A stretch of 44,552 nt of DNA from an uncultured Bifidobacterium sp. (GCA_964555105.1 CAZKRC010000003.1:1-44552); one strand, 5' to 3'; positions 2,523 to 37,615 are shown, counted from the stretch's first letter. Numbers and translations: made by a program. Notes: generated by a model not told the origin, from the letters alone.

Positions 2523-4082
2523 TCAGGGTTTGACGGCGGACGGTGCGGAAGCAGCGGAAGCAGCGGCCGGTTTGACGAAGTAAATACCCGCGGGCAGCAT
2601 GCCGTCGGCGCTCACGCGCACCGGCTTGCCGGCCGCAGTCACGACGCGCGCCCCGCGCACCCACTCGGGGGCGCGGCCGCCAGCCAGATGAATGAAGCGC
2701 GCTGCGCCAGAGGCCGGGCGCACGGACGCGCGCGAGACGCCCGGAGCGATGGACGTGGCAATCAGGGGTTGCAGTGCACGATGCACCTTGCGCGCGATAC
2801 TGTCCTGCCCGACGCGGTTCGGATGCACGCCATCGGGCGCGAGGGACTGGAGGTTCAGGAAAGGCGTATGCAAGTCGATCACGCCCGCGACCTGCGTGGG
2901 CCGCGATGAGGCGATCGCGTCGATGGCCGGGCCGAGAGAATCACGGATGATGTCCCCGTTGATGCCGCTGGTGTCGGCGGTCCACCCATTGTTGGGGAAC
3001 GCCCAGTTGCCGTTGACTTTCCACGCCGGGAACGCCTTGAACAACACGAACTTGGGCTTGGGCGTCATGTTGTTGTACAGGGTATCGATGAAGTAGCGGT
3101 AATCGTTCACGAAGCGCGGGCCCTGCCAGAAGTATTTGCGCGCGTCGTTGGTACCGAGCTTGACGGTGATGAAGTGCGGCTTCATCATGAACAGGGTATC
3201 CATCTGGTTCTTGTCGGTCACGTACGACTTGAACGAAGCGCCTGCATTGGGCAGCTGTGCACGCTGCATCCACCAACCGCTTTTACCACCATTCCACACC
3301 CAATAGCGCGGCCCCAACAGCATGTTGAGGCGCAGGGCGTAGGCATCCTTGACGGTCACGCCCCCGGTTGTGCCTGCGGCCTGGGTGATGCTGTTGCCCA
3401 CGCACATGATGCGGATCGACTGGTCGACGAATGCGCGAAATGCCAGACGACCCAGCGTGTCCTGGCCCACGCTGTTTGGCAGAATGCGCTTGGGATTGCC
3501 GTTGGGGGTCAAGTACCGGTCTATCTGCCCCGCGAGGGGGGTGTAGAGGTTGATCGTGTCCGCGCCTTTTTCCAGGGCGATGGCGCGAAGGCGGGGAATG
3601 ATGGAATTCGAGATCACCTGGTTGTTGCGCTCCAACGGGTCCGTGGGAGCGGCGTCGGGCATGACCGGCGTGGGATACACGACGAGGATGCGCGGCTTCG
3701 AGGGCATCGCGGCGAGCGTATCGATCAGGGCCTTGTAGTCAGCCGTAAAGTTCGCACTGTCGTCCCAGTTCATGGCTTTCGAGTCGGAAGAACCCAGTTG
3801 GATGCTCACGATGTCAGGCTCGTAGGCGAACACCTGGGCGAGCAGGCCGGAAGCCCAGTAGCTTGAGTCGCCGCTGCGAAGAGTTGTCGCCCCATCGCCT
3901 CTGAACGTACGCAGGCTGTCTGCGGGCAGGCGGCTTGAGAGGCCGGGGATCCAGTTGGTTGTGTAGTCGCCGATCGCCGCCCAACGCAAGGTCCGTACGG
4001 TCTGGGCATGAGAAGTGACGGCCACCACGCCCATCAGGGCGGCGACGAGAGACGAAACGGCGAGGGTGCGGGAAGGCTTCAT
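2523..4082 (-). CDS. secreted tandem SGNH/GDSL-family hydrolase (carbohydrate esterase-like)
   Basis: Internal start MKPSRTLAVSSLVAALMGVVAVTSHAQ is a signal peptide; ATG 4082-4080 overlaps the upstream stop as ATGA. Two SGNH-like blocks: AAIGDYTT..LGSSDS and CVGNSIT..LGTNDA..DGVHPN. C-terminal PAGIYFVKP is a Por-tail-like motif. Confidence 0.7.
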   Translation of the reverse strand: MKPSRTLAVSSLVAALMGVVAVTSHAQTVRTLRWAAIGDYTTNWIPGLSSRLPADSLRTFRGDGATTLRSGDSSYWASGLLAQVFAYEPDIVSIQLGSSDSKAMNWDDSANFTADYKALIDTLAAMPSKPRILVVYPTPVMPDAAPTDPLERNNQVISNSIIPRLRAIALEKGADTINLYTPLAGQIDRYLTPNGNPKRILPNSVGQDTLGRLAFRAFVDQSIRIMCVGNSITQAAGTTGGVTVKDAYALRLNMLLGPRYWVWNGGKSGWWMQRAQLPNAGASFKSYVTDKNQMDTLFMMKPHFITVKLGTNDARKYFWQGPRFVNDYRYFIDTLYNNMTPKPKFVLFKAFPAWKVNGNWAFPNNGWTADTSGINGDIIRDSLGPAIDAIASSRPTQVAGVIDLHTPFLNLQSLAPDGVHPNRVGQDSIARKVHRALQPLIATSIAPGVSRASVRPASGAARFIHLAGGRAPEWVRGARVVTAAGKPVRVSADGMLPAGIYFVKPAAASAASAPSAVKP

Positions 4083-22225: not shown

Positions 22226-22511
22226 GGAATATTCGGGGGGGGATGGCGCACGCTTGAGACGCCGAGCGGCCCACGGTCGAACGACAAGAGCGTGCGCGGT
22301 GACGAGACGCAGGGATGTTCGGGACGTAACGCCTCCCTTTCGTGTTTTTTCCGTCATATTCTTGAGAAATCGGGCGTTTTCCGGGTTTTAGAACCTCGGG
22401 TATTATATTTCATGACTCATCCTTCCGCGTTCCCATGCCGTTTTCGTCGCTTTTAAAGACGATTCCCGGCATCTCGCATCAACGCGCACCCATTTGCCTT
22501 TTGGAGCCGTC

Positions 22512-23867
22512 ATGTCCACTTTCCAGCACGTTAAAGTCCCCGCCAACGGCCAGGCCATCACCATCGGAGCCAACGGCGCCCTGAACGTCCCCGACCGTCC
22601 CATCATCCCCTTCATCGAAGGCGACGGCACCGGACCCGACATCTGGAAGGCCTCGCAGCATGTGCTCGACGAGGCGGTGCGCAAGGTCTACGGCGGCACG
22701 CGCAAGATCGAGTGGATGGAAGTGTACGCGGGCGAGAAGTCGCTGTCGGTGTACGGCGAAAACCAGTGGCTCCCCGAAGAGACGCTGACGGCCTTCAAGC
22801 AATACCTCGTGGGCATCAAGGGGCCGCTGACGACCCCCGTGGGCGGCGGCATCACCTCCCTGAACGTGGCCCTGCGCCAGATCCTCGACCTGTACGTGTG
22901 CCTGCGCCCGGTGCGCTGGTACACCGGTGTGCCGTCGCCCGTGAAGCACCCCGAAAAGGTCGACATGGTGATCTTCCGCGAGAACACCGAAGACATTTAC
23001 GCCGGCATCGAATGGGCCGGCGGCACCGAAGGCGCCGCCAGGATCCTCGCCGTGCTGGAACAGGAGTTCCCCAAGCAATTCGGGAAGATCCGCTTCGGCA
23101 CCGAGAAGGCCGCCAGGGACTGGCAGGCACGGCTTGAGAACGCCGGTCTGCCGGCCCGCGACGCGGGCGTGAACGTGGGCGTGGGCATCAAGCCGGTGAG
23201 CAAGCCCGGCACTGAGCGCCTTGTGTACAGCGCAATCGAGTACGCCATCAAGCACGGCCGCAAGAGCGTGACGCTGGTGCACAAGGGCAACATCATGAAG
23301 TTCACCGAAGGCGCGTTCCGCGACTGGGGCTACGGCGTCGCCAAGGAGCTCTTCGGCGCGGTCGAGATCGACGGCGGGCCGTGGTGCAAGATCCCCGACG
23401 GCAAGCCGGGCGCAGGGCTGGTGATCAAGGACGCCATCGCCGACATCGCGCTGCAGCAGGTGCTGACACGCCCCGAGGATTTCGACGTGATCGCCACGTT
23501 GAACCTGAACGGCGACTACCTCTCCGACGCGCTCGCGGCGCAGGTGGGCGGCATTGGCATCGCCCCGGGCGGGAACGCCAACTACCGCAGCGGCCACGCG
23601 ATTTTCGAAGCCACGCACGGCACCGCGCCCAAGTACGCAGGTCTAGACAAGGTCAACCCGGGTTCCGTGATTCTCTCGGGCGTGATGATGCTCGAGCACC
23701 TCGGCTGGACCGAAGCCGCGGACGCCATCGTCACTGCGCTGGAGCGGACCATCGGCGCGAAGACGGTGACCTATGACTTCGCCCGCTTGATGGACGGCGC
23801 GAAGGAAGTCGGCTGCATGGAATTCGGCCGCCTGGTAGGCGAGGCGATCGAAGCGAAGGCGGTTTAA
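22512..23867 (+). CDS. icd: NADP-dependent isocitrate dehydrogenase (prokaryotic homodimeric type)
   Basis: [26 protein letters not shown] and NLNGDYLSD motifs. GGAG lies 6 nt upstream of ATG 22512. Confidence 0.9.
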
Positions 23868-23868
23868 C

Positions 23869-25056
23869 ATGGCCGGTGACGACGTTCTCTTCACGATCAC
23901 CCGTGATCACCTCGACACGGGTTTGCGCGGCTTTCCGGTGGGGACCTGCCCCATCAGCGATGTCGACCCCGTCAAGGGCCTGAGCTACGGCGGTTATCCG
24001 ATCGCGCAACTGGCCGAACTTGAACCCGAGGAAGTGATCCACATCCTGCTGCGCAAGGAACTGCCCGACCCGGCGCGCCTGGCGGTGTTCCACGGCGAAC
24101 TGGTGGGCCAGGGTCCGCTGCACCCCGGCATCCTCAAGCTTCTGGAGTCCTTCCCCCGCGAAGGTCATCCGATGAAATGGTTGATCGGCGGCCTGGTGGG
24201 GATGGGCATGTTCGAACCGAAGAACGATTACCGCAAGGATTGTTTGCGGGTGATCGCCCAGCTCCCCGAGCTGGTGGCCGCCATCTTTCGCATCCGCTCG
24301 GGCTGGGGCGCGCCCATCGCGTCGCGTCCGGAGCTGGGCTGGGTGGAAAACTTCGTGCACATGCTGGGTGTTCCCGGCCTGGGTAAAAACCCCGAGGAGA
24401 TGCAGCGCCTGATCCGCCTGATGCGCGTGTTCATGATCCTGCACTTCGACCACGGCGGCGGCAACCTGTCGACCTTCGTGGGCAAGGCCATCGCCTCGGG
24501 ACATGAGGACATGTACGGCTCGCTCGCCGGCGCGATGGCCGGCCTGGCGGGCCCGTTGCACGGGATGGCCAACCAGGAGTGCCTGCGCTTCGTGAAGGAA
24601 GTGGCCCAGACCGTGAAGGACCCGTCCGACGAAGCGGCGCTGGAGGCCTACATCGAGGAACGCCTGGCATCCGGCGGTGTATTGTTCGGCTTCGGCCACG
24701 CGGTGCTGCGCGTCGAAGATCCGCGCGCCACGGTGCAGTACGCGCTGGGCGAGGAGATCGCGAAGGACGATCCCCTGTTCCGTCTGGCGGTGTCGCTGCG
24801 CAAGGTGGGCGTGGAGGCGTTGAAGAAGCGCCCGAAGATCAGCAACCCCTACCCGAACGTCGACGCGGTGTCGGGCACGTTGCTCAATGCGTGCGGCCTG
24901 ACCGACGAGTCCTACTATACAGTGCTGTTCGGTCTGTCCCGCTGCGTGGGCATCGCATCCCAGATCGTGTGGGAACGCACCGAAGCGCGCGGCGGCAAGG
25001 GCTTGCCGATCGTGCGTCCGAAGTATCTGTACACCGGGCCTGAAGTCAGGGATTGA
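23869..25056 (+). CDS. citrate synthase family protein (atypical active-site block)
   Basis: LHFDHGGGNLSTF, PLHGMANQE, FGFGHAVLRVEDPRA and NVDAVSG match the citrate-synthase fold signatures. The start lies 1 nt after the icd stop. Confidence 0.75.
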   Translation: MAGDDVLFTITRDHLDTGLRGFPVGTCPISDVDPVKGLSYGGYPIAQLAELEPEEVIHILLRKELPDPARLAVFHGELVGQGPLHPGILKLLESFPREGHPMKWLIGGLVGMGMFEPKNDYRKDCLRVIAQLPELVAAIFRIRSGWGAPIASRPELGWVENFVHMLGVPGLGKNPEEMQRLIRLMRVFMILHFDHGGGNLSTFVGKAIASGHEDMYGSLAGAMAGLAGPLHGMANQECLRFVKEVAQTVKDPSDEAALEAYIEERLASGGVLFGFGHAVLRVEDPRATVQYALGEEIAKDDPLFRLAVSLRKVGVEALKKRPKISNPYPNVDAVSGTLLNACGLTDESYYTVLFGLSRCVGIASQIVWERTEARGGKGLPIVRPKYLYTGPEVRD

Positions 25057-25103
25057 TCGCAGGGGCGATTTGCGAATCACTCCTGGCCCCAATTTGAGGG
25101 CAT

Positions 25104-25235: not shown

Positions 25236-25470
25236 TTCATCGAAAGGACCCGCCATGGTCGGTGAAATCTTTGGACTCTCGGTTCTCGCTCTGCTCGTTA
25301 TCCTCATCATTTACTGGCTGCCGGTGATTTGGGTCCTGGTCTCCAATCGCACGGAAGGTGCGACCAAGTTTGTTTGGTTCGTCGTGGCCTTCGTTTTCTC
25401 GTGGGTGAGGTTGATTGCGTTTTTGCTGCTCACATCTCCGAGAGGGAATCGACTCACGAATTCGTATTGA
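25231..25470 (+). repeat. direct repeat copy 1 (small membrane-protein gene plus 24-nt leader)
   Basis: Aligns with 31744-31983, from gaaccttcatcgaaagg to cgtattga. The 5' half is nearly identical and the 3' half is diverged. Confidence 0.85.
25255..25470 (+). CDS. 71-aa two-TM membrane protein (PLDc_N-like small membrane protein), paralogue 1
   Basis: MVGEIFGLSVLALLVILIIYWLPVIWVLVSNRTEGATKFVWFVVAFVFSWVRLIAFLLL. AAAGGA lies 7 nt upstream of the ATG. The family call is from memory of the pattern TM-charged loop-K..W-TM. Confidence 0.6.
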   Translation: MVGEIFGLSVLALLVILIIYWLPVIWVLVSNRTEGATKFVWFVVAFVFSWVRLIAFLLLTSPRGNRLTNSY

Positions 25471-25512: not shown

Positions 25513-26898
25513 TCAAAAATCCAGAGGACTGACCACCTGGTTGCCGATGGACCGCACCGCGTGCGTATAAATCATCGTGGTCTCCACGCTCGAATGGCCC
25601 AGCAATTCCTGCACGGTGCGGATGTCGTATCCCGCCTGCAGCAAGTGCGTCGCGAAGCAATGCCGCAGCGTATGCGCCGAAGCCCGCTTCGCCAGTCCGG
25701 ATTCCAGCACCGCGGCGCGCATCGCCTTTTGAACATGCGACTCATGAAGATGGTACCGCCTGCGCTCGCCCGACTCCGGCACCCGCGTCAACATCCTCGC
25801 CGGGAATACCCACTGCCACGGCCATTCCCGGGGCGCGTTCGGATACTTGCGCTCGAGCGCATCCGGCAGAAACACCCCGCCATAGCCCACGGCCCTATCC
25901 CTCCCATGAAGGTCTTGAACTTCCCCCAGATGCCTTCTCAGGCCGGTCGCCAGCCGATCGGGCAGGGGGAGCGAACGGCTTTTATCCCCTTTACCCGCCT
26001 GAATCAAAAGTCGCCGGGAATCGAAATCAATGTCTTGCACGCGCAGACCCACGGCCTCGAAAAGCCGCAGCCCGCAACCGTACATCAAGCCGCCCAGAAG
26101 GTCGAAGGGAGGCGTCAGTCTGGCGAGGAGACGACTCACCTCGTCGCGACTCAGTACCACCGGAATGCGCGGTCGCCGTTGGGGCCTGGGAACGTCGCGC
26201 AGCCCCGAATATTCCAGGTCGAGCACCTTGGTGTACAAGAACAACAACGCATTGAAAGCCTGGTTTTGCGTCGAAGCCGAGACCGAGCGTTCCACGGCGA
26301 GGTAGGTCAAAAAGGCCTTGGCGTCTTCCGCCGAAATCTCCATCGGCGGCATGTCGCCGATGAATTCCCGAAAGCGGATGACCCAGTGCCGGTAGGCCTT
26401 AAGGGTCTTGGGGGAGCAATGACGGAGCTCCAGTTCGGCTGCCAGGCATCGGAAGGTTTCCGGCCAGCTTTGGGGCGCCTCGGATTTCGGGGGACGGCCT
26501 TCATTCGGGAATAGGGCCGCCCGCGACGACGTGGGCACGATGTCCGTATTCTTCGCCGGCTCCGCATTTCGTAGGATCGGAGAGTCTGGGAAAAGGCTTC
26601 GCAGCACCTCGATGGCCCGTTCCGCCTGCCGTACCTGGAAATCGGGTCGCCCGGAGGCGCGCAGATCGCCCAGGAAAACAGCCGAGGACTCCTTGAGGCT
26701 CGGGTCGCGCCCCCGTACGGAACACTCCGCCAAATAGTCCCGCAACCACTTGTGATAGAAAGGAACGTTGTTGGGGCCGATCCCCGCCCGTCCTTCAAGA
26801 GCCTTTTGAAAGGCCTCGCGCAGACTCGCATAAGTGGGACTCGCTGAAAGAGCATATTCCTCCGCAACTGGAGATCTGGAACCGGATGCTGAATTCAT
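25513..26898 (-). CDS. intI: integron integrase (IntI-type tyrosine recombinase) with an N-terminal extension
   Basis: VSASTQNQAFNALLFLY; the IntI-specific insertion LPDALERKYPNAPREWPWQWVFPA...RRRYHLHESHVQKAMRAAV; catalytic HTLRHCFATHLL, LLGHSSVETTMIYTH. Start set at MNSASGS with GGAG upstream; 27045 is the alternative. Confidence 0.9.
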   Translation of the reverse strand: MNSASGSRSPVAEEYALSASPTYASLREAFQKALEGRAGIGPNNVPFYHKWLRDYLAECSVRGRDPSLKESSAVFLGDLRASGRPDFQVRQAERAIEVLRSLFPDSPILRNAEPAKNTDIVPTSSRAALFPNEGRPPKSEAPQSWPETFRCLAAELELRHCSPKTLKAYRHWVIRFREFIGDMPPMEISAEDAKAFLTYLAVERSVSASTQNQAFNALLFLYTKVLDLEYSGLRDVPRPQRRPRIPVVLSRDEVSRLLARLTPPFDLLGGLMYGCGLRLFEAVGLRVQDIDFDSRRLLIQAGKGDKSRSLPLPDRLATGLRRHLGEVQDLHGRDRAVGYGGVFLPDALERKYPNAPREWPWQWVFPARMLTRVPESGERRRYHLHESHVQKAMRAAVLESGLAKRASAHTLRHCFATHLLQAGYDIRTVQELLGHSSVETTMIYTHAVRSIGNQVVSPLDF

Positions 26899-27104
26899 AA
26901 CCCGCTCCCCCCTTCCGTAGAGGCCATGACGTTCCCGTGAAAAACGGACTTTCAAAGCCATTGCGGAATTATCAGAAAACCGCAGCAATCCATCAGCCGA
27001 GACTGTGACAGCCGCCACGGATCTTTGGCCCCAAAGTTTGGACAAAAAGTCAAGGGGGACAAAGGCTGGCCAAGGGAAGGCACGAACAGCGGCGGTGCGC
27101 CGAC

Positions 27105-27674: not shown

Positions 27675-28052
27675 ATGCCTAATGAATCTGAAATAAATCG
27701 ACTGTTGAACGACTTAACAAGGGCGACCGCATCAGGTGGTCTTTCCTGGGAGTTGTTGTCCGCCCCGGCCTCGCTTTCGGCTGGAACGGACGATCTATTC
27801 CCTACTTATTTGCAAACTGGGTATAAATCCCAGATAATTGGGCTATATGAGAAAAGATTTCAGAGCTATTTCCCGGATTTGGACAACTTCTTGTGGGACG
27901 CTCGGATTGGATTAATATTTCTCGATAGGCAAAGCCGCATTACGTGGCAATACGACGAAAAAAGTGGTGCTCTTGGCAATCTTTTTGAGATCGCAAAAGA
28001 ATCAGCAACAGGAATTGACGACATCTTTGCAAACTTACTCAGCGATAGTTAA
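27675..28052 (+). CDS. cassette 1 ORF B: hypothetical soluble 125-aa protein
   Basis: Starts 3 nt after the stop of ORF A (tgactaATG). Its TAA stop lies inside the attC R'' box. Confidence 0.6.
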   Translation: MPNESEINRLLNDLTRATASGGLSWELLSAPASLSAGTDDLFPTYLQTGYKSQIIGLYEKRFQSYFPDLDNFLWDARIGLIFLDRQSRITWQYDEKSGALGNLFEIAKESATGIDDIFANLLSDS

Positions 28053-28110
28053 CAACCGGCTTCAGCGGTCGTTCCGCTCCGCGGCCCGCCGCTGATCCGG
28101 ATCGTTAGCT
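28047..28110 (+). other. attC site 1 (64-bp family)
   Basis: R'' AGTTAAC and R' GTTAGCT. Arms CCGGCTTCAGCGG / CCGCTGATCCGG pair with a one-base asymmetry. Confidence 0.8.
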
Positions 28111-28717: not shown

Positions 28718-28781
28718 AGCTAACAACCGGCTCCAGCGGGCGTTCCGCTTCGCGGCCCGCCGCTAAGCCGGACCGTTAGGC
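28718..28781 (+). other. attC site 2 (64-bp family)
   Basis: R'' AGCTAAC is the exact complement of GTTAGCT at the cassette start. R' is GTTAGGC. About 85% identical to attC1. Confidence 0.85.
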
Positions 28782-28794
28782 AAGCAGAGATCCT

Positions 28795-29523
28795 ATGAAT
28801 CCATCAGCAATTTTTGAAGCCTTTGATCTAGACAAGAAGACGGAGCTAGATAAGGTCTTTTATCTTGCAATTGCTTCACAGCTAGATAATCCAAGTAGCG
28901 AGTTCCATATAACTGACGTGTATCAGTGGTTTGATGAAATTGGACTTTCAAGACCAAACCAAAGCCGTCTGGTAAGCAGGATCAAGAAGGACAAACGATT
29001 TATAAAAGGGGCCAGTGCAAATGGATTCAAAGTTTCGGCAACAGCAATAAAAGCGTCAAAGCAACTTTTCAAGGACTTTCAGATTGTCGAGGAGCCGAAG
29101 GTAAAAGATCAATCTATTCTTCCCATAGCCGTCTACTCGGGTACAAGGAAGTACATCGAAACGATATGTAACCAAATCAATGTAGCCTTTGAGCATGCGG
29201 TTTTTGATGGATGCTCGGTGATGATGAGGCGCTTAATAGAGGTTTTGCTGATTTCTTGTTACGTCAACGAGGGTTCTGAAGCTGAGATAACTGACTCCGA
29301 TGGCAATAGATTTCCGTTATCAAAAATCATCAATTACACACTTTCAAATAGTAAATTTGGACTGGGCAAGACATGCAAAGATTTTCTGCATTCGTTTAGA
29401 ACGCTCGGGAATTTGTCAGCCCACGAAATCTATTACACATGCAAGAGAGCCGAACTCACTGCTGTAGCAACTGAGTTCCGAGTGTCCGTAGAAGAATTGC
29501 TTTTTAAATCAGGACTAAAATAA
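28795..29523 (+). CDS. cassette 3 ORF A: wHTH-like N-terminus plus DUF4145/HEPN-like C-terminal domain
   Basis: The C-terminal half IETICNQINVAFEHAVFDGCSVMMRRLIEVLL ... FRTLGNLSAHE fits the DUF4145 pattern (R..GN...H), recalled from memory. Confidence 0.6.
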   Translation: MNPSAIFEAFDLDKKTELDKVFYLAIASQLDNPSSEFHITDVYQWFDEIGLSRPNQSRLVSRIKKDKRFIKGASANGFKVSATAIKASKQLFKDFQIVEEPKVKDQSILPIAVYSGTRKYIETICNQINVAFEHAVFDGCSVMMRRLIEVLLISCYVNEGSEAEITDSDGNRFPLSKIINYTLSNSKFGLGKTCKDFLHSFRTLGNLSAHEIYYTCKRAELTAVATEFRVSVEELLFKSGLK

Positions 29524-29533
29524 GGAGAAGGAA

Positions 29534-30061
29534 GTGACTCAATCAGTATTTAAGATAAACCTCTCTACTGGCGATGTAGAAATTTCAGGCTCCGAGGAAT
29601 TTGTATCCGCATGTATAGACAGGCTGCCACTTGTAATGAGAGAGCTTGGGCAAGACACGTTGATGGCAAAGGCCCCAGGAAAAAACCCAACAGCAGGCAA
29701 TCAGAATGGTGGCCAAGACGCAGGGAATTCTCAAGGGGCTACAAACAGTTTGGGCGTACCCGACTCATTTGGTGAATGGAAACAGAAGTTCAAAGACGGG
29801 CTTACTCAGGATCAGAAAGTTCTCATGTCAGGATACTATTGCCAAGCACAAAACCCTGAGAACATTTTCAAAACTAAAGAAGCAAATGATATTTTGAAGA
29901 ACCACGGAATCAAGGTTGCGAACGCCGCCAATAATCTAAAGTCGCTCGAAGAGAATAAATACGTGTTTATTGCTAAGAAGTCCGGAAAGTTGAAATTATA
30001 TCGAGTGACAGAGCAGGGACTTCAGCATCTAAACGCACAGATGATGCAACAGAGTGCCTAA
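29534..30061 (+). CDS. cassette 3 ORF B: hypothetical 175-aa protein with a G/N/Q-rich linker and wHTH-like C-terminus
   Basis: Starts 10 nt after ORF A (GTG start, GGAGAAGGAAG upstream). Its stop lies inside the attC3 R'' box. Confidence 0.55.
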   Translation: MTQSVFKINLSTGDVEISGSEEFVSACIDRLPLVMRELGQDTLMAKAPGKNPTAGNQNGGQDAGNSQGATNSLGVPDSFGEWKQKFKDGLTQDQKVLMSGYYCQAQNPENIFKTKEANDILKNHGIKVANAANNLKSLEENKYVFIAKKSGKLKLYRVTEQGLQHLNAQMMQQSA

Positions 30062-30160
30062 CAAATTCTTGCAGACGGACCAAACCATGCTGTCATGTCT
30101 TTTGCAAAGAACGCAAAAGCCACGCCAGCACGCTTTGGCCGCTGAAGAAAGGCGTTCGGC
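30056..30160 (+). other. attC site 3 (105 bp, heterologous type)
   Basis: R'' GCCTAAC is the exact complement of GTTAGGC at the cassette start. R' is GTTCGGC. TTCTTgCAGaCGGaCCAAA pairs with TTTGGCCGCTGAAGAA, leaving single extrahelical bases. Confidence 0.75.
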
Positions 30161-30166
30161 TATATT

Positions 30167-30637
30167 ATGACCGCAGAAGAACTCGCCGCCCATTTCAAGA
30201 AGCTGCATTTGGATCGCTACGAGATCCAAGAGAGAGGCCGACGCACCAATGTGCCTCGGCAGATCCTAAGCGCTGATGAGCGCAATGCTATTCTACGGAA
30301 AACAGATTCACGGTGCCATATTTGCGGAGGATTCATCGATGGCAAGCCATGGCACGCGGATCATGTCCTTTCTCACAGCAGCGGAGGAGCTCATCATATC
30401 GACAACTACCTGCCTGCACACTCGCTTTGTAACAACTACCGTTGGGACTACACTCCAGAGGAGTTTCAATACATCCTCAAACTCGGCGTTTGGCTCCGCA
30501 CCCAGATCGAAAGGCGCACATCAGTCGGAAAGATTGCGGCACTGGCGTTTATCGCATACGAGTCAGCTCGTGTGAGGCGGCGGAAGCGTTCCCCAATAAT
30601 AGAAGAAGCCGAACAAGACGCTGCAGCCAACCCCTAG
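30167..30637 (+). CDS. cassette 4: small HNH endonuclease
   Basis: CHICGGFIDGKPWHADHVLSHSSGGAHHIDNYLPAHSLCN is an HNH/His-Me finger. The 3' end of the ORF lies inside attC4. Confidence 0.75.
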   Translation: MTAEELAAHFKKLHLDRYEIQERGRRTNVPRQILSADERNAILRKTDSRCHICGGFIDGKPWHADHVLSHSSGGAHHIDNYLPAHSLCNNYRWDYTPEEFQYILKLGVWLRTQIERRTSVGKIAALAFIAYESARVRRRKRSPIIEEAEQDAAANP

Positions 30638-30731
30638 CAGCGACTCGCGGTTTTGTTCGGACTTCCGATTCACAAAAACCTTTCCACAAGAGTTCGGCGT
30701 CCGTTCGGGGTGGCTGAGCTTGGCGTTAGTA
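30608..30731 (+). other. attC site 4 (124 bp, heterologous type)
   Basis: R'' GCCGAAC is the exact complement of GTTCGGC at the cassette start. R' is GTTAGTA. AAGacgCTgCAGCCAaCCCC pairs with GGGGTGGCTGAGCTT, leaving bulged bases. Confidence 0.7.
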
Positions 30732-31474: not shown

Positions 31475-31537
31475 TGTGAACAACCGGCTCCAGCCGACGG
31501 CCCGCCTCGCGGCCCGCAGCTGATCCGAACGTTCTCC
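31475..31537 (+). other. attC site 5 (64-bp family), last in the array
   Basis: AACAACCGGCTCCAGC...GCGGCCCGCAGCTGATCCGAACGTT aligns with attC1 and attC2. R'' TGTGAAC is only 4/7 complementary to the cassette start GTTAGTA. R' GTTCTCC is off-consensus. Confidence 0.65.
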
Positions 31538-31743: not shown

Positions 31744-31983
31744 GAACCTTCATCGAAAGGCCCCACAATGGCCGGTGAAATTTTTGGACTCTCGGTTCTC
31801 GCTCTGCTCGTTATCCTCATCATTTACTGGCTCCCGGTTATTTGGGTCCTGGTCTCCCCTCGTACGGAAGGCGTGACCAAGTTCGCCTGGTTCATCATTG
31901 CCTTGGTCTTTTCTTGGGTAGGCCTCATCGCGTTCTTGCTGCTTGCACCTACGGGAGGAAATCGGGCCTCAGGGCCGTATTGA
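31744..31983 (+). repeat. direct repeat copy 2 (small membrane-protein gene plus leader)
   Basis: Aligns with 25231-25470. Confidence 0.85.
31768..31983 (+). CDS. 71-aa two-TM membrane protein, paralogue 2
   Basis: MAGEIFGLSVLALLVILIIYWLPVIWVLVSPRTEGVTKFAWFIIALVFSWVGLIAFLLL. 55 of 71 residues are identical to the 25255 copy by my count. Confidence 0.65.
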   Translation: MAGEIFGLSVLALLVILIIYWLPVIWVLVSPRTEGVTKFAWFIIALVFSWVGLIAFLLLAPTGGNRASGPY

Positions 31984-32008
31984 TGAGGTGAAGGGCACGT
32001 GAATTATG

Positions 32009-32040
32009 AAGGCTCCTCCGCAAACGGGGAGCCTTTCGTT
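32009..32040 (+). terminator. rho-independent terminator after paralogue 2
   Basis: AAGGCTCC-11 nt-GGAGCCTT followed by TCGTT. Confidence 0.55.
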
Positions 32041-32114
32041 ATGAGTGACCTTACCGGGGCTTTTGCGGAGGATATGGGGGATATTCTACGCAAAACGGCT
32101 CCCTTTAGGCATTT

Positions 32115-32188
32115 TGAGCCGATAGACTGCAATATTCGGCTCAGTTATTCTCCTTTTATGAGCCGAATAAGGATTATATTCGGCTCAT
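32115..32188 (+). promoter_or_regulatory. two related palindromes (TGAGCCGAATA / TATTCGGCTCA) upstream of and overlapping the fic start
   Basis: IR1 at 32115-32143 is TGAGCCGATA-N8-TATTCGGCTCA. IR2 at 32158-32188 is ATGAGCCGAATA-aggatta-TATTCGGCTCAT, a perfect 12-bp arm. The right arm of IR2 contains the first two bases of the fic ATG and its loop contains AAGGA. Confidence 0.6.
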
Positions 32189-33293
32189 GGTCCGCTACAA
32201 CTGGCAGCTCGATAATTGGCCAGACTTCACCTTCGACATCGCGAAGGTGGAAGACGCGCTATTTGCCTTTGCAGAAAATGCCGGACGCACCACGGGCGCT
32301 TGGCAGGCCTTGCCAGAGGCCGCTCGTTGGGAATCGTTGATCGACATGCTAACGGCCGAGGCCTTGAAGACCTCGAAGATCGAGGGGGAGCACCTCGACC
32401 GCGAGGACGTTCGTTCTTCGCTCCGGAAGAACCTCGGCTTACATGACGACAGCCGCCGGGTCAAGGACAAGCGGGCGGCCGGCATTGCCGCGATGATGAT
32501 CAACGCCCGCAGCACGTGGAATGAACCTTTGACACGAGAGACGCTATTCGCGTGGCACGAGATGCTTCTCGCAGAGAATCATGGCATGCGTGTCGGATCC
32601 TGGAGAACCCACGAGGAGCCGATGCAAGTGGTCTCGGGAGCGATCGGCCGGGAGAAGGTCCATTACGAGGCGCCCCCTTCTTCCCGCGTGCCGGTCGAGA
32701 TGGAGCGCTTCATCGATTGGTTCAACGAGGCACCAAACACTGGCAAGGCGATGCGTCTTGCGCCCATCCGCTGCGCCGTCGCGCACCTTTACTTCGAGTC
32801 CATTCACCCATTCGAGGATGGCAACGGTCGTATCGGTCGTGCCGTGGCGGAGAAAGCCCTCTCGCAAGGGATGGGACGCCCTGTACTCTTGAGTCTTTCG
32901 GAAACCATTGAGGCGGACCGGAAGGCCTATTACGAGGCTTTGAAGCAGGCCCAGCGATCCCACGACGTGACGGAGTGGATGCGCTATTTCACCGATGTCG
33001 TTTTACGCGCCCAGGTTCGTGCCGAAGCGATGATCGATTTTACGGTGCGCAAGGCTCATTTCTTCGATCGCTTTCGCGATACCCTGAGCGAGCGCCAACG
33101 CGTCGCGATCGGGAAGATGCTGGTGCACGGTCCCGGAGGTTTGGGGGACGGCATCAGCGCGGCGAAGTACGCCACGATGACAAAGGTTTCGAAGGCTACG
33201 GCTACACGCGATCTGCAAGAACTGCTCTCGTCAGGAGTCATCGAGCGCTTGGAGGGCGGAGGCCGCAATACGCGGTATCGCGTGGCTCTTTAG
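32187..33293 (+). CDS. Fic/DOC family protein, class II (N-terminal DUF4172-like region with intramolecular inhibitory motif, C-terminal wHTH)
   Basis: Active-site HPFEDGNGRIGR. TSKIEG matches the inhibitory (S/T)xxxE(G/N) motif. N-terminal YNWQLDNWPDFTFD. Confidence 0.85.
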   Translation: MVRYNWQLDNWPDFTFDIAKVEDALFAFAENAGRTTGAWQALPEAARWESLIDMLTAEALKTSKIEGEHLDREDVRSSLRKNLGLHDDSRRVKDKRAAGIAAMMINARSTWNEPLTRETLFAWHEMLLAENHGMRVGSWRTHEEPMQVVSGAIGREKVHYEAPPSSRVPVEMERFIDWFNEAPNTGKAMRLAPIRCAVAHLYFESIHPFEDGNGRIGRAVAEKALSQGMGRPVLLSLSETIEADRKAYYEALKQAQRSHDVTEWMRYFTDVVLRAQVRAEAMIDFTVRKAHFFDRFRDTLSERQRVAIGKMLVHGPGGLGDGISAAKYATMTKVSKATATRDLQELLSSGVIERLEGGGRNTRYRVAL

Positions 33294-33399
33294 AGCCGCA
33301 AAATCCTCAAGTGGTTCGACTGGATGTATCGTTGCTGGTGAAATTCGATGTCATGAAGTGAAGTTGATTTTCACGCGTGGCAGTAAATTTCACACGAAA

Positions 33400-35067
33400 A
33401 TGCATCGTATTTCCAGAGAGCCCCCTACCAAGCAGTGGCACGACATTCGCCAAGCAGTCCTGACCCGGGATAACCACACCTGTATTTCGTGCGGCACCGT
33501 TCCGGAAACAGGCGAAACCGACATCCATCACCTTGTTCCCCGGTCAGCCGGCGGACTGGACGACCCCAGCAACCTGATCACCCTCTGCGACGGTTGTCAT
33601 GCAGCACGGCATCCGAACTTGCAGACCTCACTCTCCCGCCGCATGCTCGAACGCTGGGGACTCCGACTGGCGCACTGGCTTGATCGTCAGAATGAACTAC
33701 GAAATATCGACGAGACCCTGGGCGATGCATTGCGGATGCTGGGGGTCCAACGATTCAGGCACCCACAACTTGAAGTTGTTCTGGCCGCTCTTCGCGGCGA
33801 ATCCTTGCTGCTCGTAAGTGCAACCGGATCGGGAAAGTCCCTGTGCTTCCAGCTCCCCGTTCTGCTCAACCACAAGGTCGGGGTGGTCATATCGCCTCTT
33901 AAGGCCCTGATGAGCCAACAAGTGACCGGTCTTCAAGAGAAACAGATCCCCGGTACGTTCATTAACGGAGACCTCAGTCCCGCCGAAAAAAAACTTCGGT
34001 ACAAGCTCCTCCACAACGGCGTGTACAAGTTCCTTTACTGCACTCCTGAAAGATTCGACCCGAATATGGTCAGACCTGCCGAAGTGGAAGAGATCAGCCG
34101 TCTACGTCCCAGCTACCTCATCATCGACGAAGCGCATTGCATTGACCGCTGGGGTAAAGACTTCCGCCCCAATTATGGGAGACTCGGGAATGTCAGGAAT
34201 GCACTTGGAAAACCTCCGGTTCTGGCTTTCACAGCAACAGCCGGCGTCGATAGCCAAAAGAGAATCTTGCAATCGATCGGAGTCCCGCACGCGCGTGTGA
34301 TCGTCACAGGGGTCAATCGCCCCAACATTGCGATGGCTCGGCTTCCAGACCTGGATGAGCTGAGGCGATACCGTCTTGTCATCGACCTTATACGAGCCAT
34401 GCCTTCAGGTCGAGCAATGATCTTCGTCCCTACCGTTCGGATAGGCCATCGACTGCAAACCGGGCTACATGATCTAGGGCTCGAAATACCATTTTACCAC
34501 TCTCAACTTGGTACGGCTAACGAACGGGACCTGCTACTCGGAAGATTTGTTGGTCGTCTTTCACCGTCGTTGAATCTCATAATCTGCACAAATGCTTTCG
34601 GAATGGGTCTTGATGTTCCAGACGTCAGGCTTGTGATTCATTGGCAGCACCCCGCATCTGTGGAAGATTACCTGCAAGAGTTTGGGCGGGCTGGTCGTGA
34701 TGGCAACCGCTCCATCGCAATTCTCTTTACGGACCGCAAGGACGAAGGATTATTGCGATACATGGCGGAAAAATCCGCCTCGGGTATAGATGGCCCGACT
34801 GATTCACACAACGAAGCATTGCAGGCACGCTACGCGTCGATCTCCCAAATAAAAAAGGTGGCGCTGGCAAGAAGACATTGCTTTCGCAAATTGCTCGTTC
34901 ATTATTTCGGAGGAAATGTCTCAAAGAACCACAAATCCCTCTCTATGAGAATTGTTTCCTGGATTTTCGAAAAAAGGATTCAGACCCAAAAAGTGAAACG
35001 CTGCTGTGACCATTGTGACAACGTCGATCAGGAAAATATTGTCGCGTGGGCGCGCAGCATACTTTAG
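33400..35067 (+). CDS. HNH endonuclease fused to a RecQ-family DEAH helicase core (Zn-binding module present; no recognisable WH or HRDC)
   Basis: HNH: CISCG...DIHHLVPRSAGGLDDPSNLITLCDGCHAARH. Helicase: SATGSGKSLCFQLP, IIDEAHCI, FTATA, CTNAFGMGLD, QEFGRAGRDG. Zn motif: CFRKLLVHYFG...CCDHCD. Start at ATG 33400, with GTG 33358 as the alternative. Confidence 0.85.
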   Translation: MHRISREPPTKQWHDIRQAVLTRDNHTCISCGTVPETGETDIHHLVPRSAGGLDDPSNLITLCDGCHAARHPNLQTSLSRRMLERWGLRLAHWLDRQNELRNIDETLGDALRMLGVQRFRHPQLEVVLAALRGESLLLVSATGSGKSLCFQLPVLLNHKVGVVISPLKALMSQQVTGLQEKQIPGTFINGDLSPAEKKLRYKLLHNGVYKFLYCTPERFDPNMVRPAEVEEISRLRPSYLIIDEAHCIDRWGKDFRPNYGRLGNVRNALGKPPVLAFTATAGVDSQKRILQSIGVPHARVIVTGVNRPNIAMARLPDLDELRRYRLVIDLIRAMPSGRAMIFVPTVRIGHRLQTGLHDLGLEIPFYHSQLGTANERDLLLGRFVGRLSPSLNLIICTNAFGMGLDVPDVRLVIHWQHPASVEDYLQEFGRAGRDGNRSIAILFTDRKDEGLLRYMAEKSASGIDGPTDSHNEALQARYASISQIKKVALARRHCFRKLLVHYFGGNVSKNHKSLSMRIVSWIFEKRIQTQKVKRCCDHCDNVDQENIVAWARSIL

Positions 35068-35306
35068 CTTGCCATCCCCACCTCAACACCCTCTTCAACT
35101 GCCCAGCCGCACCGAAGGCACAAAACGGGCCACAAAGCGTTATTCAATCATCGGGACACCGTTTCCCACCGAGCCTAAATAACGGCTTCTTACAGGGTTA
35201 ATTGCCATTATGGCGTTATTACTTTTTAAAATGGACGTTTCCGATCACGTCTGTGTGCATCCCCCTTTAGCTACCGTTGGCATACAACCCTGAACCGGGA
35301 GACGTC

Positions 35307-36236
35307 ATGTCATTCAGCCCCTTCAAAACCCTGCCGGCGCTTGCGCTTGTCACGCTCGTCGGTTGCCTCTCCGGAAACGACGATGAGAACGGAAACGGCG
35401 GCGGCGTCAGCAACGGGAAGATCACCGTGACGGAGTCGTACACCCTGCACGAGATCATTCCTCAAAGCGAGGCCGCGCCGGGACAGCTCGTGATCGAGGG
35501 CATCGACGAATGGTGCGATGACGGCGTCCTGAAAACCGAGACATACGAATGGATCCAGAACTTCTGGGTCGAGAACAACGTCATGCTGCAGTGGGAAGAG
35601 TACGACTGCAAGGCCATGCGCCTGACCGGCGGCACGAATGGTTCCTCCCCCCTGGGCACCTGGAAATCCACCTCGCTCTACGGCGCCGACATTCCCGATG
35701 ACTTCCGCCTTCCCTTCTGCGAGGATGAAGAGGATGAAGACATCATGTTCGCTCGAGACATGGAAGTAACCCAGGTCGTCACGCAGAACAGCATCCGCAG
35801 CACGATTTCAGCGCGCGTCTGTTTTGCCGAGATGTTCGGCACCCTCATGTTCGTCGGTGATGACGAATCCGAAGGTCCCGTGCTGCAAGACGCGAGCTGC
35901 GAATCGGTCACGCTGGTCAACGACGGCAAGTCGGCCACGCTCGGCTCGAACTTCCGGAACGACAGGATCTCCTTGAGCTTCCAGCATGCCGGCTCCACCT
36001 GCAAGGCGGACTTCCCGCTCAGCTTCGCGGAGATCGGCGACCTCAACTGTTCCGAAGAGCAGGCGGAAGAGGAAGGGTACGAGGAGTTCTACACGTGCAT
36101 GTTCCAGTCCGGATTCTTCGGCGACATGGGTGACATGGGTGACATCGAGCTGGCAAAGACGGCCGCCATGGAAAAGAAGGTCGCAGGCAGCAAGATCGTC
36201 ACCGCCTTACGCAAGGCGATCCGGCGCGGGCTCTGA
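35307..36236 (+). CDS. hypothetical lipoprotein (acidic, Cys-rich)
   Basis: MSFSPFKTLPALALVTLVGCLSG contains an LVGC lipobox. GGGAGA lies upstream. GC returns to the host level here. Confidence 0.65.
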   Translation: MSFSPFKTLPALALVTLVGCLSGNDDENGNGGGVSNGKITVTESYTLHEIIPQSEAAPGQLVIEGIDEWCDDGVLKTETYEWIQNFWVENNVMLQWEEYDCKAMRLTGGTNGSSPLGTWKSTSLYGADIPDDFRLPFCEDEEDEDIMFARDMEVTQVVTQNSIRSTISARVCFAEMFGTLMFVGDDESEGPVLQDASCESVTLVNDGKSATLGSNFRNDRISLSFQHAGSTCKADFPLSFAEIGDLNCSEEQAEEEGYEEFYTCMFQSGFFGDMGDMGDIELAKTAAMEKKVAGSKIVTALRKAIRRGL

Positions 36237-36310: not shown

Positions 36311-37615
36311 GTGGAGCGGGGTTATTTTTCCCTTCCTACCCCGTACCCCGACGCCTCCGTGAGCCCAACCCCTTCCAAATCCTCTCCCCTCTGGGGCCCC
36401 GGCTGGGTCATGTTCCTCAGCTTCGCGGGTCTGTCCGCGACGCAATTCCACAGCTACCTGTTTGAGGGCAAGGGGTTCACGCCGCTCCAGATCGGGGCCC
36501 TTCTGGGCGCGGGCTACGCGGCGGGTTTGCTGGCGCCGGCCGCACAGGTGTACGCCATCCGGCGCCTGAAGGGGCCGCGCCTCCCCCTCGTTCTGGCCCT
36601 CGCGGGTGCAGGCGCGGGCATCGCGCTGCTCCCGTGGGCCGCCTCGTTCGCGCTGGTGCTCCCGATCTTTTTCCTCTCGCTGTTTTCCTCCGCGGGCATC
36701 CATCCTCTCACGGCCGCGTGCGCGCTCGAGGCCACGCGCACGCGCGGGCAGGGCACGTATTTCCTGATCCGCAGCCTGGGCACGGCGGGCTTCCTCGCCG
36801 GATGCGTCGGCAGCTACTTCCAGCCCGGCGCGGAAAAACTCGCGTGGCTCTACCTCGGGTTCGGCCTCGCGTTCTGGGCCTCCATCCCGCTCGCGCTCAC
36901 GCGCTTCCGCCCCGCCGACCCCCGCCAGGCCCCGGAGGACATCCTCGTCACGCCGCACCCGCGGCGCACCCCCGGCATGCGGCGCGCCCTGCGCCTGCTG
37001 TCCGCGCCGCGCCCCCAACGCCTGCTGTGGACTCTCGGCATCATGAACTTCGCCAACGCGATGGCCACCCTCGTGCAGGGCAATTACCTCGTCAATCGTT
37101 TCGGCCTGGGCCAGGAAGCCATCAGCTTCGCCTGGATCATCGCGACCGCGTTCGAGATCCCGTTGATGTTCCTGTGCGCAACGCTCGTGCGCCGCCACGG
37201 CCTGCGCATCGTGCTGGGTCTCGGTTTGCTGGGAACCACCCTGAAGCTTGTACTGCTGGGGCTCGCGAACGACTACACGCTGTTCCTGGCCGGTCTCGCC
37301 TTTCACGGCTGTTTCTTTTCGGGCGGCCTGGTCGGATTCAACCTGTACATCGACAAGCACTTCAAGGTCGCGGACCGCCCCTCGCTGCAATCACTGGGCG
37401 CGCTGTTCTACTCGGGCCTGCCCACCGCCCTCGGCGGGCTCACCGCCGGCCTCCTGTGGCACTTCTTCGGCTTGCGCTCGGTCTACCTGTTCACCGCCGC
37501 GGTCGGCATCGGCGTGGGGCTCTATACGCTCAGGCTTTTGCCCATGCTGCCGGGACACGCACGAAGCGGCAATGGAACAGCACAACGTCACAGCAGCACA
37601 ACATCACAGCAATAA
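36311..37615 (+). CDS. MFS transporter (MFS_1_like / HcaT-type topology)
   Basis: About 12 hydrophobic segments with FLIRSLGTAGF-type loops. Start uncertain, with GTG 36359 as the alternative. Confidence 0.7.
   Translation: MERGYFSLPTPYPDASVSPTPSKSSPLWGPGWVMFLSFAGLSATQFHSYLFEGKGFTPLQIGALLGAGYAAGLLAPAAQVYAIRRLKGPRLPLVLALAGAGAGIALLPWAASFALVLPIFFLSLFSSAGIHPLTAACALEATRTRGQGTYFLIRSLGTAGFLAGCVGSYFQPGAEKLAWLYLGFGLAFWASIPLALTRFRPADPRQAPEDILVTPHPRRTPGMRRALRLLSAPRPQRLLWTLGIMNFANAMATLVQGNYLVNRFGLGQEAISFAWIIATAFEIPLMFLCATLVRRHGLRIVLGLGLLGTTLKLVLLGLANDYTLFLAGLAFHGCFFSGGLVGFNLYIDKHFKVADRPSLQSLGALFYSGLPTALGGLTAGLLWHFFGLRSVYLFTAAVGIGVGLYTLRLLPMLPGHARSGNGTAQRHSSTTSQQ

Follow-up and report, generated by a model that had tools for sequence, protein, structure and literature searches.

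We study two adjacent genes, one for a Fic protein and one for an HNH-RecQ fusion helicase, in a 44,552-nucleotide (nt) stretch of DNA (CAZKRC010000003.1) that as a whole we call the window; Pfam, NCBIfam and PADLOC profile searches, together with sequence and fold searches of the PDB, are applied to its proteins. The pair lies at positions 32,115-35,067, beside a chromosomal integron. The Fic open reading frame (ORF) in the ORF listing runs from 32187 to 33293 on the plus strand, opens with ATG and encodes 368 amino acids (aa). The helicase ORF, on the same strand, runs from 33358 to 35067 and gives 569 aa from its GTG start or 555 aa from the ATG at 33400; the public gene calls agree with a 368-aa Fic product and a 555-aa helicase product. 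The gap between the genes (33294-33399) is 106 nt. Base composition marks both as foreign, with 60.0% GC in the Fic gene and 53.2% in the helicase gene against 63-65% in the flanking chromosome; the integron cassettes stand at 46.6%. ORFs and GC content thus confirm the initial annotation of this DNA as far as it placed two same-strand genes, 106 nt apart, in lower-GC DNA past the integron array.

The Fic gene and an operator-like array over its start codon

Pfam resolves the Fic protein into DUF4172 (1.5e-24, aa 4-85), a Fic domain (6.4e-17) and a weak C-terminal winged helix-turn-helix (wHTH, at about aa 323-366). The inhibitory motif TSKIEG (aa 62-67, nt 32370-32387) lies inside DUF4172 and fits the pattern (S/T)xxxE(G/N), and the active-site motif HPFEDGNGRIGR (aa 207-218, nt 32805-32840) fits HxFx(D/E)GNGRxxR. 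Along its whole length the protein matches PDB entry 8CIL, which is CbFic2 (1e-61); in this alignment TSKIEG falls on TSAIEG (62-67) of CbFic2 and HPFEDGNGRIGR falls on HPFDDGNGRIGR. The Pfam matches and the motif alignment bear out the earlier assignment to class II, with an intact active site and an inhibitory motif, and by these motifs the window protein is a CbFic2-type class II Fic, predicted to be an auto-inhibited AMP-transferase. CbFic2 itself belongs to class II and has TSAIEG (62-67) inside DUF4172; its DeoR-type wHTH binds DNA at nanomolar affinity, and DNA binding stimulates its AMPylation activity (PMC10628234).

The start codon of the Fic gene is covered by an array that looks like an operator (32116..32188). 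The 11-mer TGAGCCGAATA occurs in three exact copies within 55 nt (32133-32187) and nowhere else in the 44.5 kb, and these three copies together with a degenerate fourth half-site make up two palindromes that overlap the start codon: GAGCCGATA-N7-ATATTCGGCTCA at 32116-32143 and TGAGCCGAATA-N7-TATTCGGCTCA at 32158-32188 (inverted repeats I12 and I19). Further upstream, at 32061..32095, lies another palindrome, TTTTGCGGAGGATAT-N5-ATATTCTACGCAAAA (I9 and I20). Paired palindromes of an analogous kind precede the Fic gene of L001, a close relative (D2, 3052-3155), and share a TTTGCGGAG core with the palindrome at 32061..32095. The Yersinia protein CccR represses its own promoter and binds palindromic sequences (cited in PMC10628234). 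From this precedent and from the position of the array over the start codon, we infer that the Fic wHTH would bind the array and autoregulate the Fic gene.

Just upstream of the array is an ORF for a 71-aa membrane protein (31768..31983, plus strand; copy B of two in the window), with a hairpin at about 32009-32035 just 3' of it. The ORF travels with the Fic gene: the two are found together again in two related contigs, L168 and L169. The Fic family is very large; the closest members to the window protein are in Bacteroidota, at 57-67% identity, and are closer to it than is the Fic protein of L001 (41%). CbFic2-type Fic genes of 66% identity also occur inside a type I CRISPR-Cas locus in L170 (3386-4498) and L171 (354-1466), positioned between the cas4-cas1/cas2 genes and the GSU0054/GSU0053/cas3 genes. 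With the window gene, the known CbFic2/CccR group gains a member from an environmental genome, one whose operator array is very clear.

An HNH nuclease fused to a RecQ core

For the helicase, Pfam returns HNH (5.2e-09, residues 28-71), DEAD (1.3e-24) and Helicase_C (1.3e-18), together with a RecQ_Zn_bind match that stays below threshold (21.5 bits, cut-off 25). Neither RQC nor HRDC has a Pfam match in the protein, which stops just past its cysteine cluster. We divide it into an HNH domain (aa 28-81, nt 33481-33642), a conserved linker (aa 82-111), a RecQ core of RecA1 and RecA2 (aa 112-445, nt 33733-34734) and a Zn-binding-like region (aa 447-541, with C494, C535, C536 and C539). The score against NCBIfam TIGR00614 (recQ_fam) is 280.1 bits, above the cut-off of 219.8, as for a RecQ-family core, and the score against the recQ equivalog TIGR01389 is 280, below its cut-off of 640 for the canonical architecture with RQC and HRDC. 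The best PDB relatives by sequence are BLM, RecQ, WRN and RECQL5, and the same four top the fold search. Across 26 aligned homologues the Cys, His and Asn residues of the HNH domain, helicase motifs I, II, III and VI and the four C-terminal cysteines are all invariant. In the AlphaFold model (predicted local distance difference test, pLDDT, 73; predicted template modelling score 0.68) the helicase core is good. Pfam, TIGR00614 and the fold matches therefore sustain the earlier description of an HNH domain fused to a RecQ core that has no winged-helix or HRDC domain.

Two matches in PADLOC suggest named identities for this protein. The first is DpdF, of the Dpd system for 7-deazaguanine DNA modification and restriction: the PADLOC "DpdF" model PDLC02859 covers the helicase end to end (3e-184), and the NCBIfam DpdF model NF041063 matches the helicase core at 4.8e-44. 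This second match, however, scores 151 bits where the equivalog cut-off is 550, and none of the window neighbours (the Fic protein, the cassettes, a lipoprotein-like ORF and a Major Facilitator Superfamily, MFS, transporter) matches any other Dpd family. The same holds elsewhere: no Dpd family is found among the top 25 listed for 150 ORFs that flank HNH-RecQ genes, and across 126 loci there is no conserved neighbour of any sort. Canonical DpdF is moreover about 800 aa long and is not known to have an N-terminal HNH domain, which also counts against the identity. In the literature examined, DpdF is named only in a list of helicases. Because the equivalog cut-off is missed and Dpd partners are neither present nor conserved, we treat the label as core homology only; it appears to reflect the helicase core and not membership of the system, and we give the DpdF identity almost no credence.

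The second match is to PsyrT (3.2e-68), which would make the helicase the toxin of a toxin-antitoxin pair of the PsyrTA/RqlHI type, with an antitoxin that had been overlooked. The match is limited to residues 113-464, the generic RecQ core; no ORF of at least 25 aa that could be PsyrA or RqlI is conserved next to the helicase across loci, and the gene upstream is a Fic gene, not a DprA-like PsyrA, so that this identity too is most improbable. PADLOC, which the initial annotation had suggested consulting, thus does have models that match both genes of the pair (SoFic for the Fic protein, DpdF for the helicase), but neither protein reaches the cut-off of the corresponding curated NCBIfam equivalog.

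The Fic and helicase genes are probably independent neighbours

The initial annotation took the two genes for a candidate defence or addiction module; in such a module the Fic protein would act, for example, as a sensor, regulator or toxin with or on the nuclease-helicase. If this were so, we would look for the pair elsewhere. A scan of one genome per species across 185,579 species finds 93 stretches with HNH-RecQ, and the full-length protein is encoded at 53 genome loci and 82 metagenome loci (about 135 in total). A Fic gene lies in the helicase flanks at three of the 53 genome loci and at none of the 82 metagenome loci, leaving 132 of 135 helicase loci with no Fic gene at all, so that the expected conservation of Fic upstream of HNH-RecQ homologues fails. 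The three exceptions have three different Fic architectures and differ in position, strand and spacing: L001 has a DUF4172-Fic-wHTH gene 3.7 kb upstream of the helicase, in the same order as in the window and with three genes between; L023 has a short Fic of 223 aa; and L035 has a true SoFic-type Fic_N-Fic (1e-116), downstream and on the opposite strand.

Nor does the helicase keep any other partner. Clustering of the flanking ORFs from 126 loci in 58 dereplicated groups gives no family common to more than six groups, and the neighbours that do recur, short-chain dehydrogenase/reductase (SDR) and Ser/Thr-kinase-TPR proteins, are generic and abundant, so that we dismiss their recurrence as chance. 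Six-frame clustering of ORFs of at least 25 aa within 500 nt on either side yields no conserved small partner ORF; it returns only the helicase, antisense frames of the helicase and the C-terminal extension of actinobacterial members.

The Fic gene, for its part, is found with other partners. L168 and L169 (from Logan, SRR31053234 and SRR31053353) are 89% identical in nucleotide sequence to window 31803-33285, with 88% amino-acid identity in the Fic protein and 100% identity in the operator region and the small ORF upstream. In L168, where the array itself is 100% identical, homology stops at the Fic stop codon, and the next gene is not a helicase but a convergent type I methylase (HsdM-like) with an NPPF motif. 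L168 (1-3061) is a mosaic, 100% identical over its first ~400 nt and about 88% identical over the Fic gene. This mosaic identity and the methylase that follows the Fic gene suggest that the small ORF, operator and Fic gene form a unit that moves by recombination. Together with the 66%-identical Fic genes inside CRISPR-Cas loci, these neighbours speak against a fixed tie to the helicase, and CbFic2-type Fics are described as acting as single proteins (PMC10628234).

Even the locus most like the window tells the two genes apart. Over its first 3 kb, L001 has about 85% amino-acid identity to window 22470-25090. Against flanking core genes at that level, the helicase of L001 is 73% identical to the window helicase and the Fic protein only 41% identical to the window Fic, identities that are discordant for a pair inherited together; the GC contents are unlike as well. 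The three unrelated genes between Fic and HNH-RecQ in L001 (4577-7786) encode a protein with a weak match to a TIR effector, an uncharacterised 240-aa protein and a DUF3800 protein, a content consistent with a defence hot spot whose genes turn over rapidly.

In the window, each of the two genes has its own upstream repeat array. That of the helicase lies inside the 106-nt gap, just 5' of the helicase start (33338..33393), and consists of GTGAAATT-N21-ATTTTCAC followed by AAATTTCAC, in inverted (I4, I11) and direct arrangement; two such matches are observed where 0.02 are expected, and these repeats may serve to regulate the helicase gene separately.

What weighs against independence should be said as plainly. 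No terminator is predicted in the 106-nt gap, and since the genes are also on the same strand, they could be co-transcribed at the window locus. L001, the closest relative, carries Fic and helicase in the same order. Three Fic neighbours in about 1 Mb of flanks exceed a rough genome-wide expectation of about 0.3, and Fic is the most frequent Pfam family among the 150 flanking ORFs (3 of 150). Some weak association between Fic and helicase therefore exists, which we attribute to shared residence in islands. On balance the gene neighbourhoods largely refute the module, which we consider very unlikely. From these neighbourhoods, the L168 breakpoint, the discordant identities of L001 and the 7-point difference in GC content, we conclude that Fic and helicase are separately exchanged units of a hot spot: probably two independent, horizontally acquired accessory genes that are adjacent by chance in a high-turnover island beside the chromosomal integron. 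It is easy to see how adjacent, same-strand genes that both look like defence genes could be taken for a system; they need not be one, and here breakpoint mapping and some 135 neighbourhoods separate them. The value that remains is in HNH-RecQ, a strongly conserved and partner-less protein often found among restriction, TIR, OLD and GmrSD genes.

Distribution of the HNH-RecQ family

HNH-RecQ is carried by Gemmatimonadota, Fibrobacterota, Rhizobiales, Solirubrobacterales and other Actinomycetota, Chloroflexia, Spirochaetaceae and metagenome-assembled genomes labelled 'Deltaproteobacteria'. It is thus spread over at least half a dozen phyla, where it occurs sporadically and without synteny, even within Gemmatimonadales. 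Every one of the best 120 clusters matches the window protein over its full length, at 60-77% identity, and the N-terminal module has 227 representatives at E <= 1e-10. Truncated copies are present in Bradyrhizobium (L038, L054). At 36 of 41 dereplicated loci the gene is poorer in GC than the distant flanks (median difference -4 points; p = 1e-7). The initial annotation had named as a refutation a widespread housekeeping RecQ clade with no conserved Fic neighbour; the family is indeed widespread and has no such neighbour, but its sporadic occurrence, lack of synteny and low GC content do not describe a housekeeping clade.

Searches for mobile carriers return little. The fusion is absent from 50,697 phage records and found on only about two plasmids, which leads us to reject a phage or plasmid origin, and PHROGs lacks a family that covers it in full. 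We likewise reject SOS control of the helicases: SOS/LexA boxes (GTTC-N7-GTTC, GAAC-N4-GTTC and CTG-N10-CAG) occur in 123 upstream regions no more often than by chance, and none is found upstream of Rhizobiales or Actinomycetota members. At two loci, L174 and L163, HNH-RecQ sits in an array of small same-strand genes that we considered as possible integron cassettes and rejected, as no attC-like repeat family is present.

Family representatives of 700-800 aa exist. A C-terminal extension of about 150 aa is conserved in the actinobacterial members (L027, L031, L034-L044 and L052; Solirubrobacterales and related); the window helicase does not have it. In public annotation the protein passes as 'RecQ family helicase', and in PADLOC it falls under the Dpd label; we find no description or experimental study of the fusion in the literature searched.

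A possible role for HNH-RecQ

Now we consider what the helicase might do on its own. Restriction or defence genes lie within 8 kb of it in six of nine Pfam-annotated contexts, an anecdotal count with no matched control. The six hold, in turn, an MZB helicase with PLD; an OLD-type ATPase-TOPRIM; Mrr with HsdM/S/R and an nSTAND NTPase; a DUF4011/MTES_1575 helicase with RmuC and GmrSD; HsdR with GmrSD/SLFN_AlbA; and TIR_2 with ThsB_TIR and HsdR. The 150 ORFs that flank the genome loci also include McrBC, MkoA, PIN, HNH_2 and PD-T4-6-like kinases. The association of HNH-RecQ with defence genes is suggestive. The family is sporadic, has no synteny, is low in GC and often stands among defence genes; it is widespread but is not a housekeeping RecQ clade, so that the helicase could plausibly have a part in defence by itself. 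Going by the genomic contexts, HNH-RecQ most likely attacks foreign or aberrant DNA as a single-gene function of defence islands.

Mechanistically, we propose that HNH-RecQ would be a self-contained nuclease-helicase that needs no partner gene. RecQ motors translocate 3'->5' on single-stranded DNA, and the motor of HNH-RecQ would move in that direction after loading at a 3' single-stranded tail, a gap or a fork. HNH-RecQ has no winged-helix pin and could, like RecQ5-type enzymes, use its Zn domain as the wedge that separates the strands. The HNH domain, joined through the conserved linker to RecA1, would sit on the side where the tracked strand emerges, and the tracked strand could then be fed to this N-terminal HNH and be nicked or shredded as ATP drives the unwinding. 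We propose nicking coupled to unwinding, and infer the feeding of the strand, because the HNH is on the RecA1 side and the layout is parallel to that of Cas3. By this analogy a Cas3-like, single-gene nuclease-helicase against foreign DNA is plausible. The stronger version, a self-sufficient immune effector that would act as a 'RecQ-type Cas3 without a guide' and would recognise, unwind and, with its HNH, cut DNA structures characteristic of mobile elements as they invade or replicate (3' tails, forks, gaps or G-quadruplexes), is a possibility that we put forward only tentatively. If it were true, a new and widespread defence family of soil bacteria would be hidden under the names 'RecQ family helicase' and 'DpdF'. 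If HNH-RecQ is a defence gene, a RecQ-based single-protein effector joins the repertoire of nuclease-helicases, and a misleading 'DpdF' label on a hidden Markov model (HMM) is corrected.

The other reading to be weighed is that HNH-RecQ is a host repair or recombination enzyme, a RecQ paralogue analogous to WRN that processes stalled forks, gaps and G-quadruplexes. Several observations count for repair and against defence, beyond the anecdotal nature of the neighbour count. The 60-77% conservation and the complete RecQ core, with all motifs intact, fit a repair enzyme as well, and a true RecQ core is what TIGR00614 and the matches to BLM, RecQ, WRN and RECQL5 indicate; a repair enzyme would need no partner, and absence from phages and rarity on plasmids agree with one. 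Two contexts are housekeeping or neutral, L165 (where the gene is flanked by SecDF and a tRNA synthetase gene) and L174. The geometry of strand feeding, moreover, is without structural support in the AlphaFold model, where the HNH-linker region is poor, with pLDDT below 50 at residues 79-119. On the other hand, a repair paralogue is not expected to be scattered without synteny even among Gemmatimonadales, to fall below the GC content of its flanks at most loci, to lack upstream SOS boxes in Rhizobiales and Actinomycetota members, to stand beside restriction, TIR, OLD or GmrSD genes in most annotated contexts, or to decay into truncated copies in Bradyrhizobium. We therefore regard a role in host repair as unlikely and retain a defence function of the helicase alone as our preferred reading.

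For the Fic protein, the glutamate of the inhibitory motif in DUF4172 would block the enzyme and, once this inhibition is relieved, the core would transfer AMP to a protein hydroxyl; the C-terminal wHTH would bind DNA and regulate its own gene through the palindromes at the start codon. The Fic gene and the 71-aa membrane ORF travel as one unit. The island's host would be a Fibrobacterota-like genome, in which Fic and helicase would have become neighbours by chance.

The integron beside the gene pair

The integron integrase ORF, which lies outside the gene pair, runs from 25513 to 27045 on the minus strand and matches TIGR02249 at 1.9e-113. It is 510 aa long and the integron-integrase model covers only residues 202-508, so that either the true start is internal or the protein has an unusual N-terminal extension of about 200 aa. 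A scan for repeats and folds places attC sites at 28047-28110, 28718-28781, 30056-30160 and 30608-30698, and the fifth and last recognisable one at 31475..31536 on the plus strand, where cassette DNA ends. Beyond 31536 the same scan gives no convincing attC after either the Fic gene or the helicase gene; the sole candidate 3' of the pair, of 45 nt at 35177-35221, is rejected as weak (-8.7 kcal/mol). An integron cassette carries attC at the 3' end of its gene, which neither Fic nor helicase does. In L001, whose Fic gene directly follows the same core genes, there is no integron at the corresponding site. The absence of attC after the pair and the arrangement in L001 agree with the initial annotation that the pair was acquired separately from the cassettes.

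Within the array, between 28795 and 30637, a DUF4145 protein (28795-29523) shares its cassette with a partner ORF of 175 aa, and another cassette (30167-30637) encodes an HNH endonuclease of 156 aa that stands alone; both cassettes are defence-like in flavour. The gene for the 71-aa membrane protein is duplicated in direct orientation, at 25255-25470 and 31768-31983. The two copies are about 86% identical in nucleotide sequence, 24 nt of upstream sequence included, and bracket the entire integron, from the integrase through the cassette array to the last attC, and recombination between them would excise it.

On the other side of the pair, a 319-aa lipoprotein-like ORF without family match (35277-36236, 57% GC) is probably the right-hand boundary of the island, and an MFS transporter gene (36311-37615) is the first clearly chromosomal gene past the helicase. 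There is no tRNA anywhere in the window that could have served as insertion site, and an Rfam scan of 25-37.5 kb gives nothing relevant.

Comparison with known systems

The Fic protein has the DUF4172-Fic-wHTH layout of CbFic2 (Coxiella burnetii CBU_0822, PDB 8CIL), with the inhibitory motif at the same residues 62-67 and an intact Fic motif. Its palindrome array over the start codon parallels CccR of Yersinia pseudotuberculosis, the wHTH of which binds palindromes in its own promoter (PMC10628234). It comes from an environmental, Fibrobacterota-like genome and not from an intracellular pathogen, and its DNA binding and autoregulation are predicted by likeness to CbFic2 and CccR. With the single-gene defence system that PADLOC and DefenseFinder label SoFic, the window protein shares a class II Fic and a wHTH (PADLOC SoFic, 1.1e-47), but its N-terminus is DUF4172 and not Fic_N, and it scores 53.8 bits against NCBIfam NF046030, where 550 are called for; we reject an identification as SoFic on the equivalog score and the N-terminal domain, in contrast to the Fic of L035, which is of the true SoFic type. 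By its domains and motifs, then, the Fic gene is a new member of a known and structurally characterised group.

For HNH-RecQ the closest parallels in plan are Cas3 (HD nuclease with a superfamily 2, SF2, helicase), Hna, Nhi and Hhe, which likewise set an N-terminal nuclease on a 3'->5' SF2 motor in one polypeptide and occur in defence islands. The window protein differs in that its nuclease is HNH and not HD, that its motor is a genuine RecQ core and that it has neither guide complex nor partner; no Hna, Nhi or Hhe model is among the 25 PADLOC matches listed of 37. The "DpdF" model PDLC02859 spans its whole length, so that the family is already present in a library of defence-gene HMMs, whereas the window locus lacks the partner genes of Dpd systems. 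Among RecQ proteins, WRN also has an N-terminal nuclease, which is a DnaQ-type exonuclease where the window protein has an HNH endonuclease. RecQ5 has neither winged-helix nor HRDC domain, and mycobacterial RqlH is not known to have either; the window helicase resembles these RecQ5/RqlH-type proteins in combining a RecQ core and a Zn-binding region with the lack of both domains. In contrast to WRN, RecQ5 and RqlH, HNH-RecQ is an accessory gene of islands and not a conserved gene of genome maintenance. It is best placed with the nuclease-helicases, as a fusion for which the literature searched has no description.

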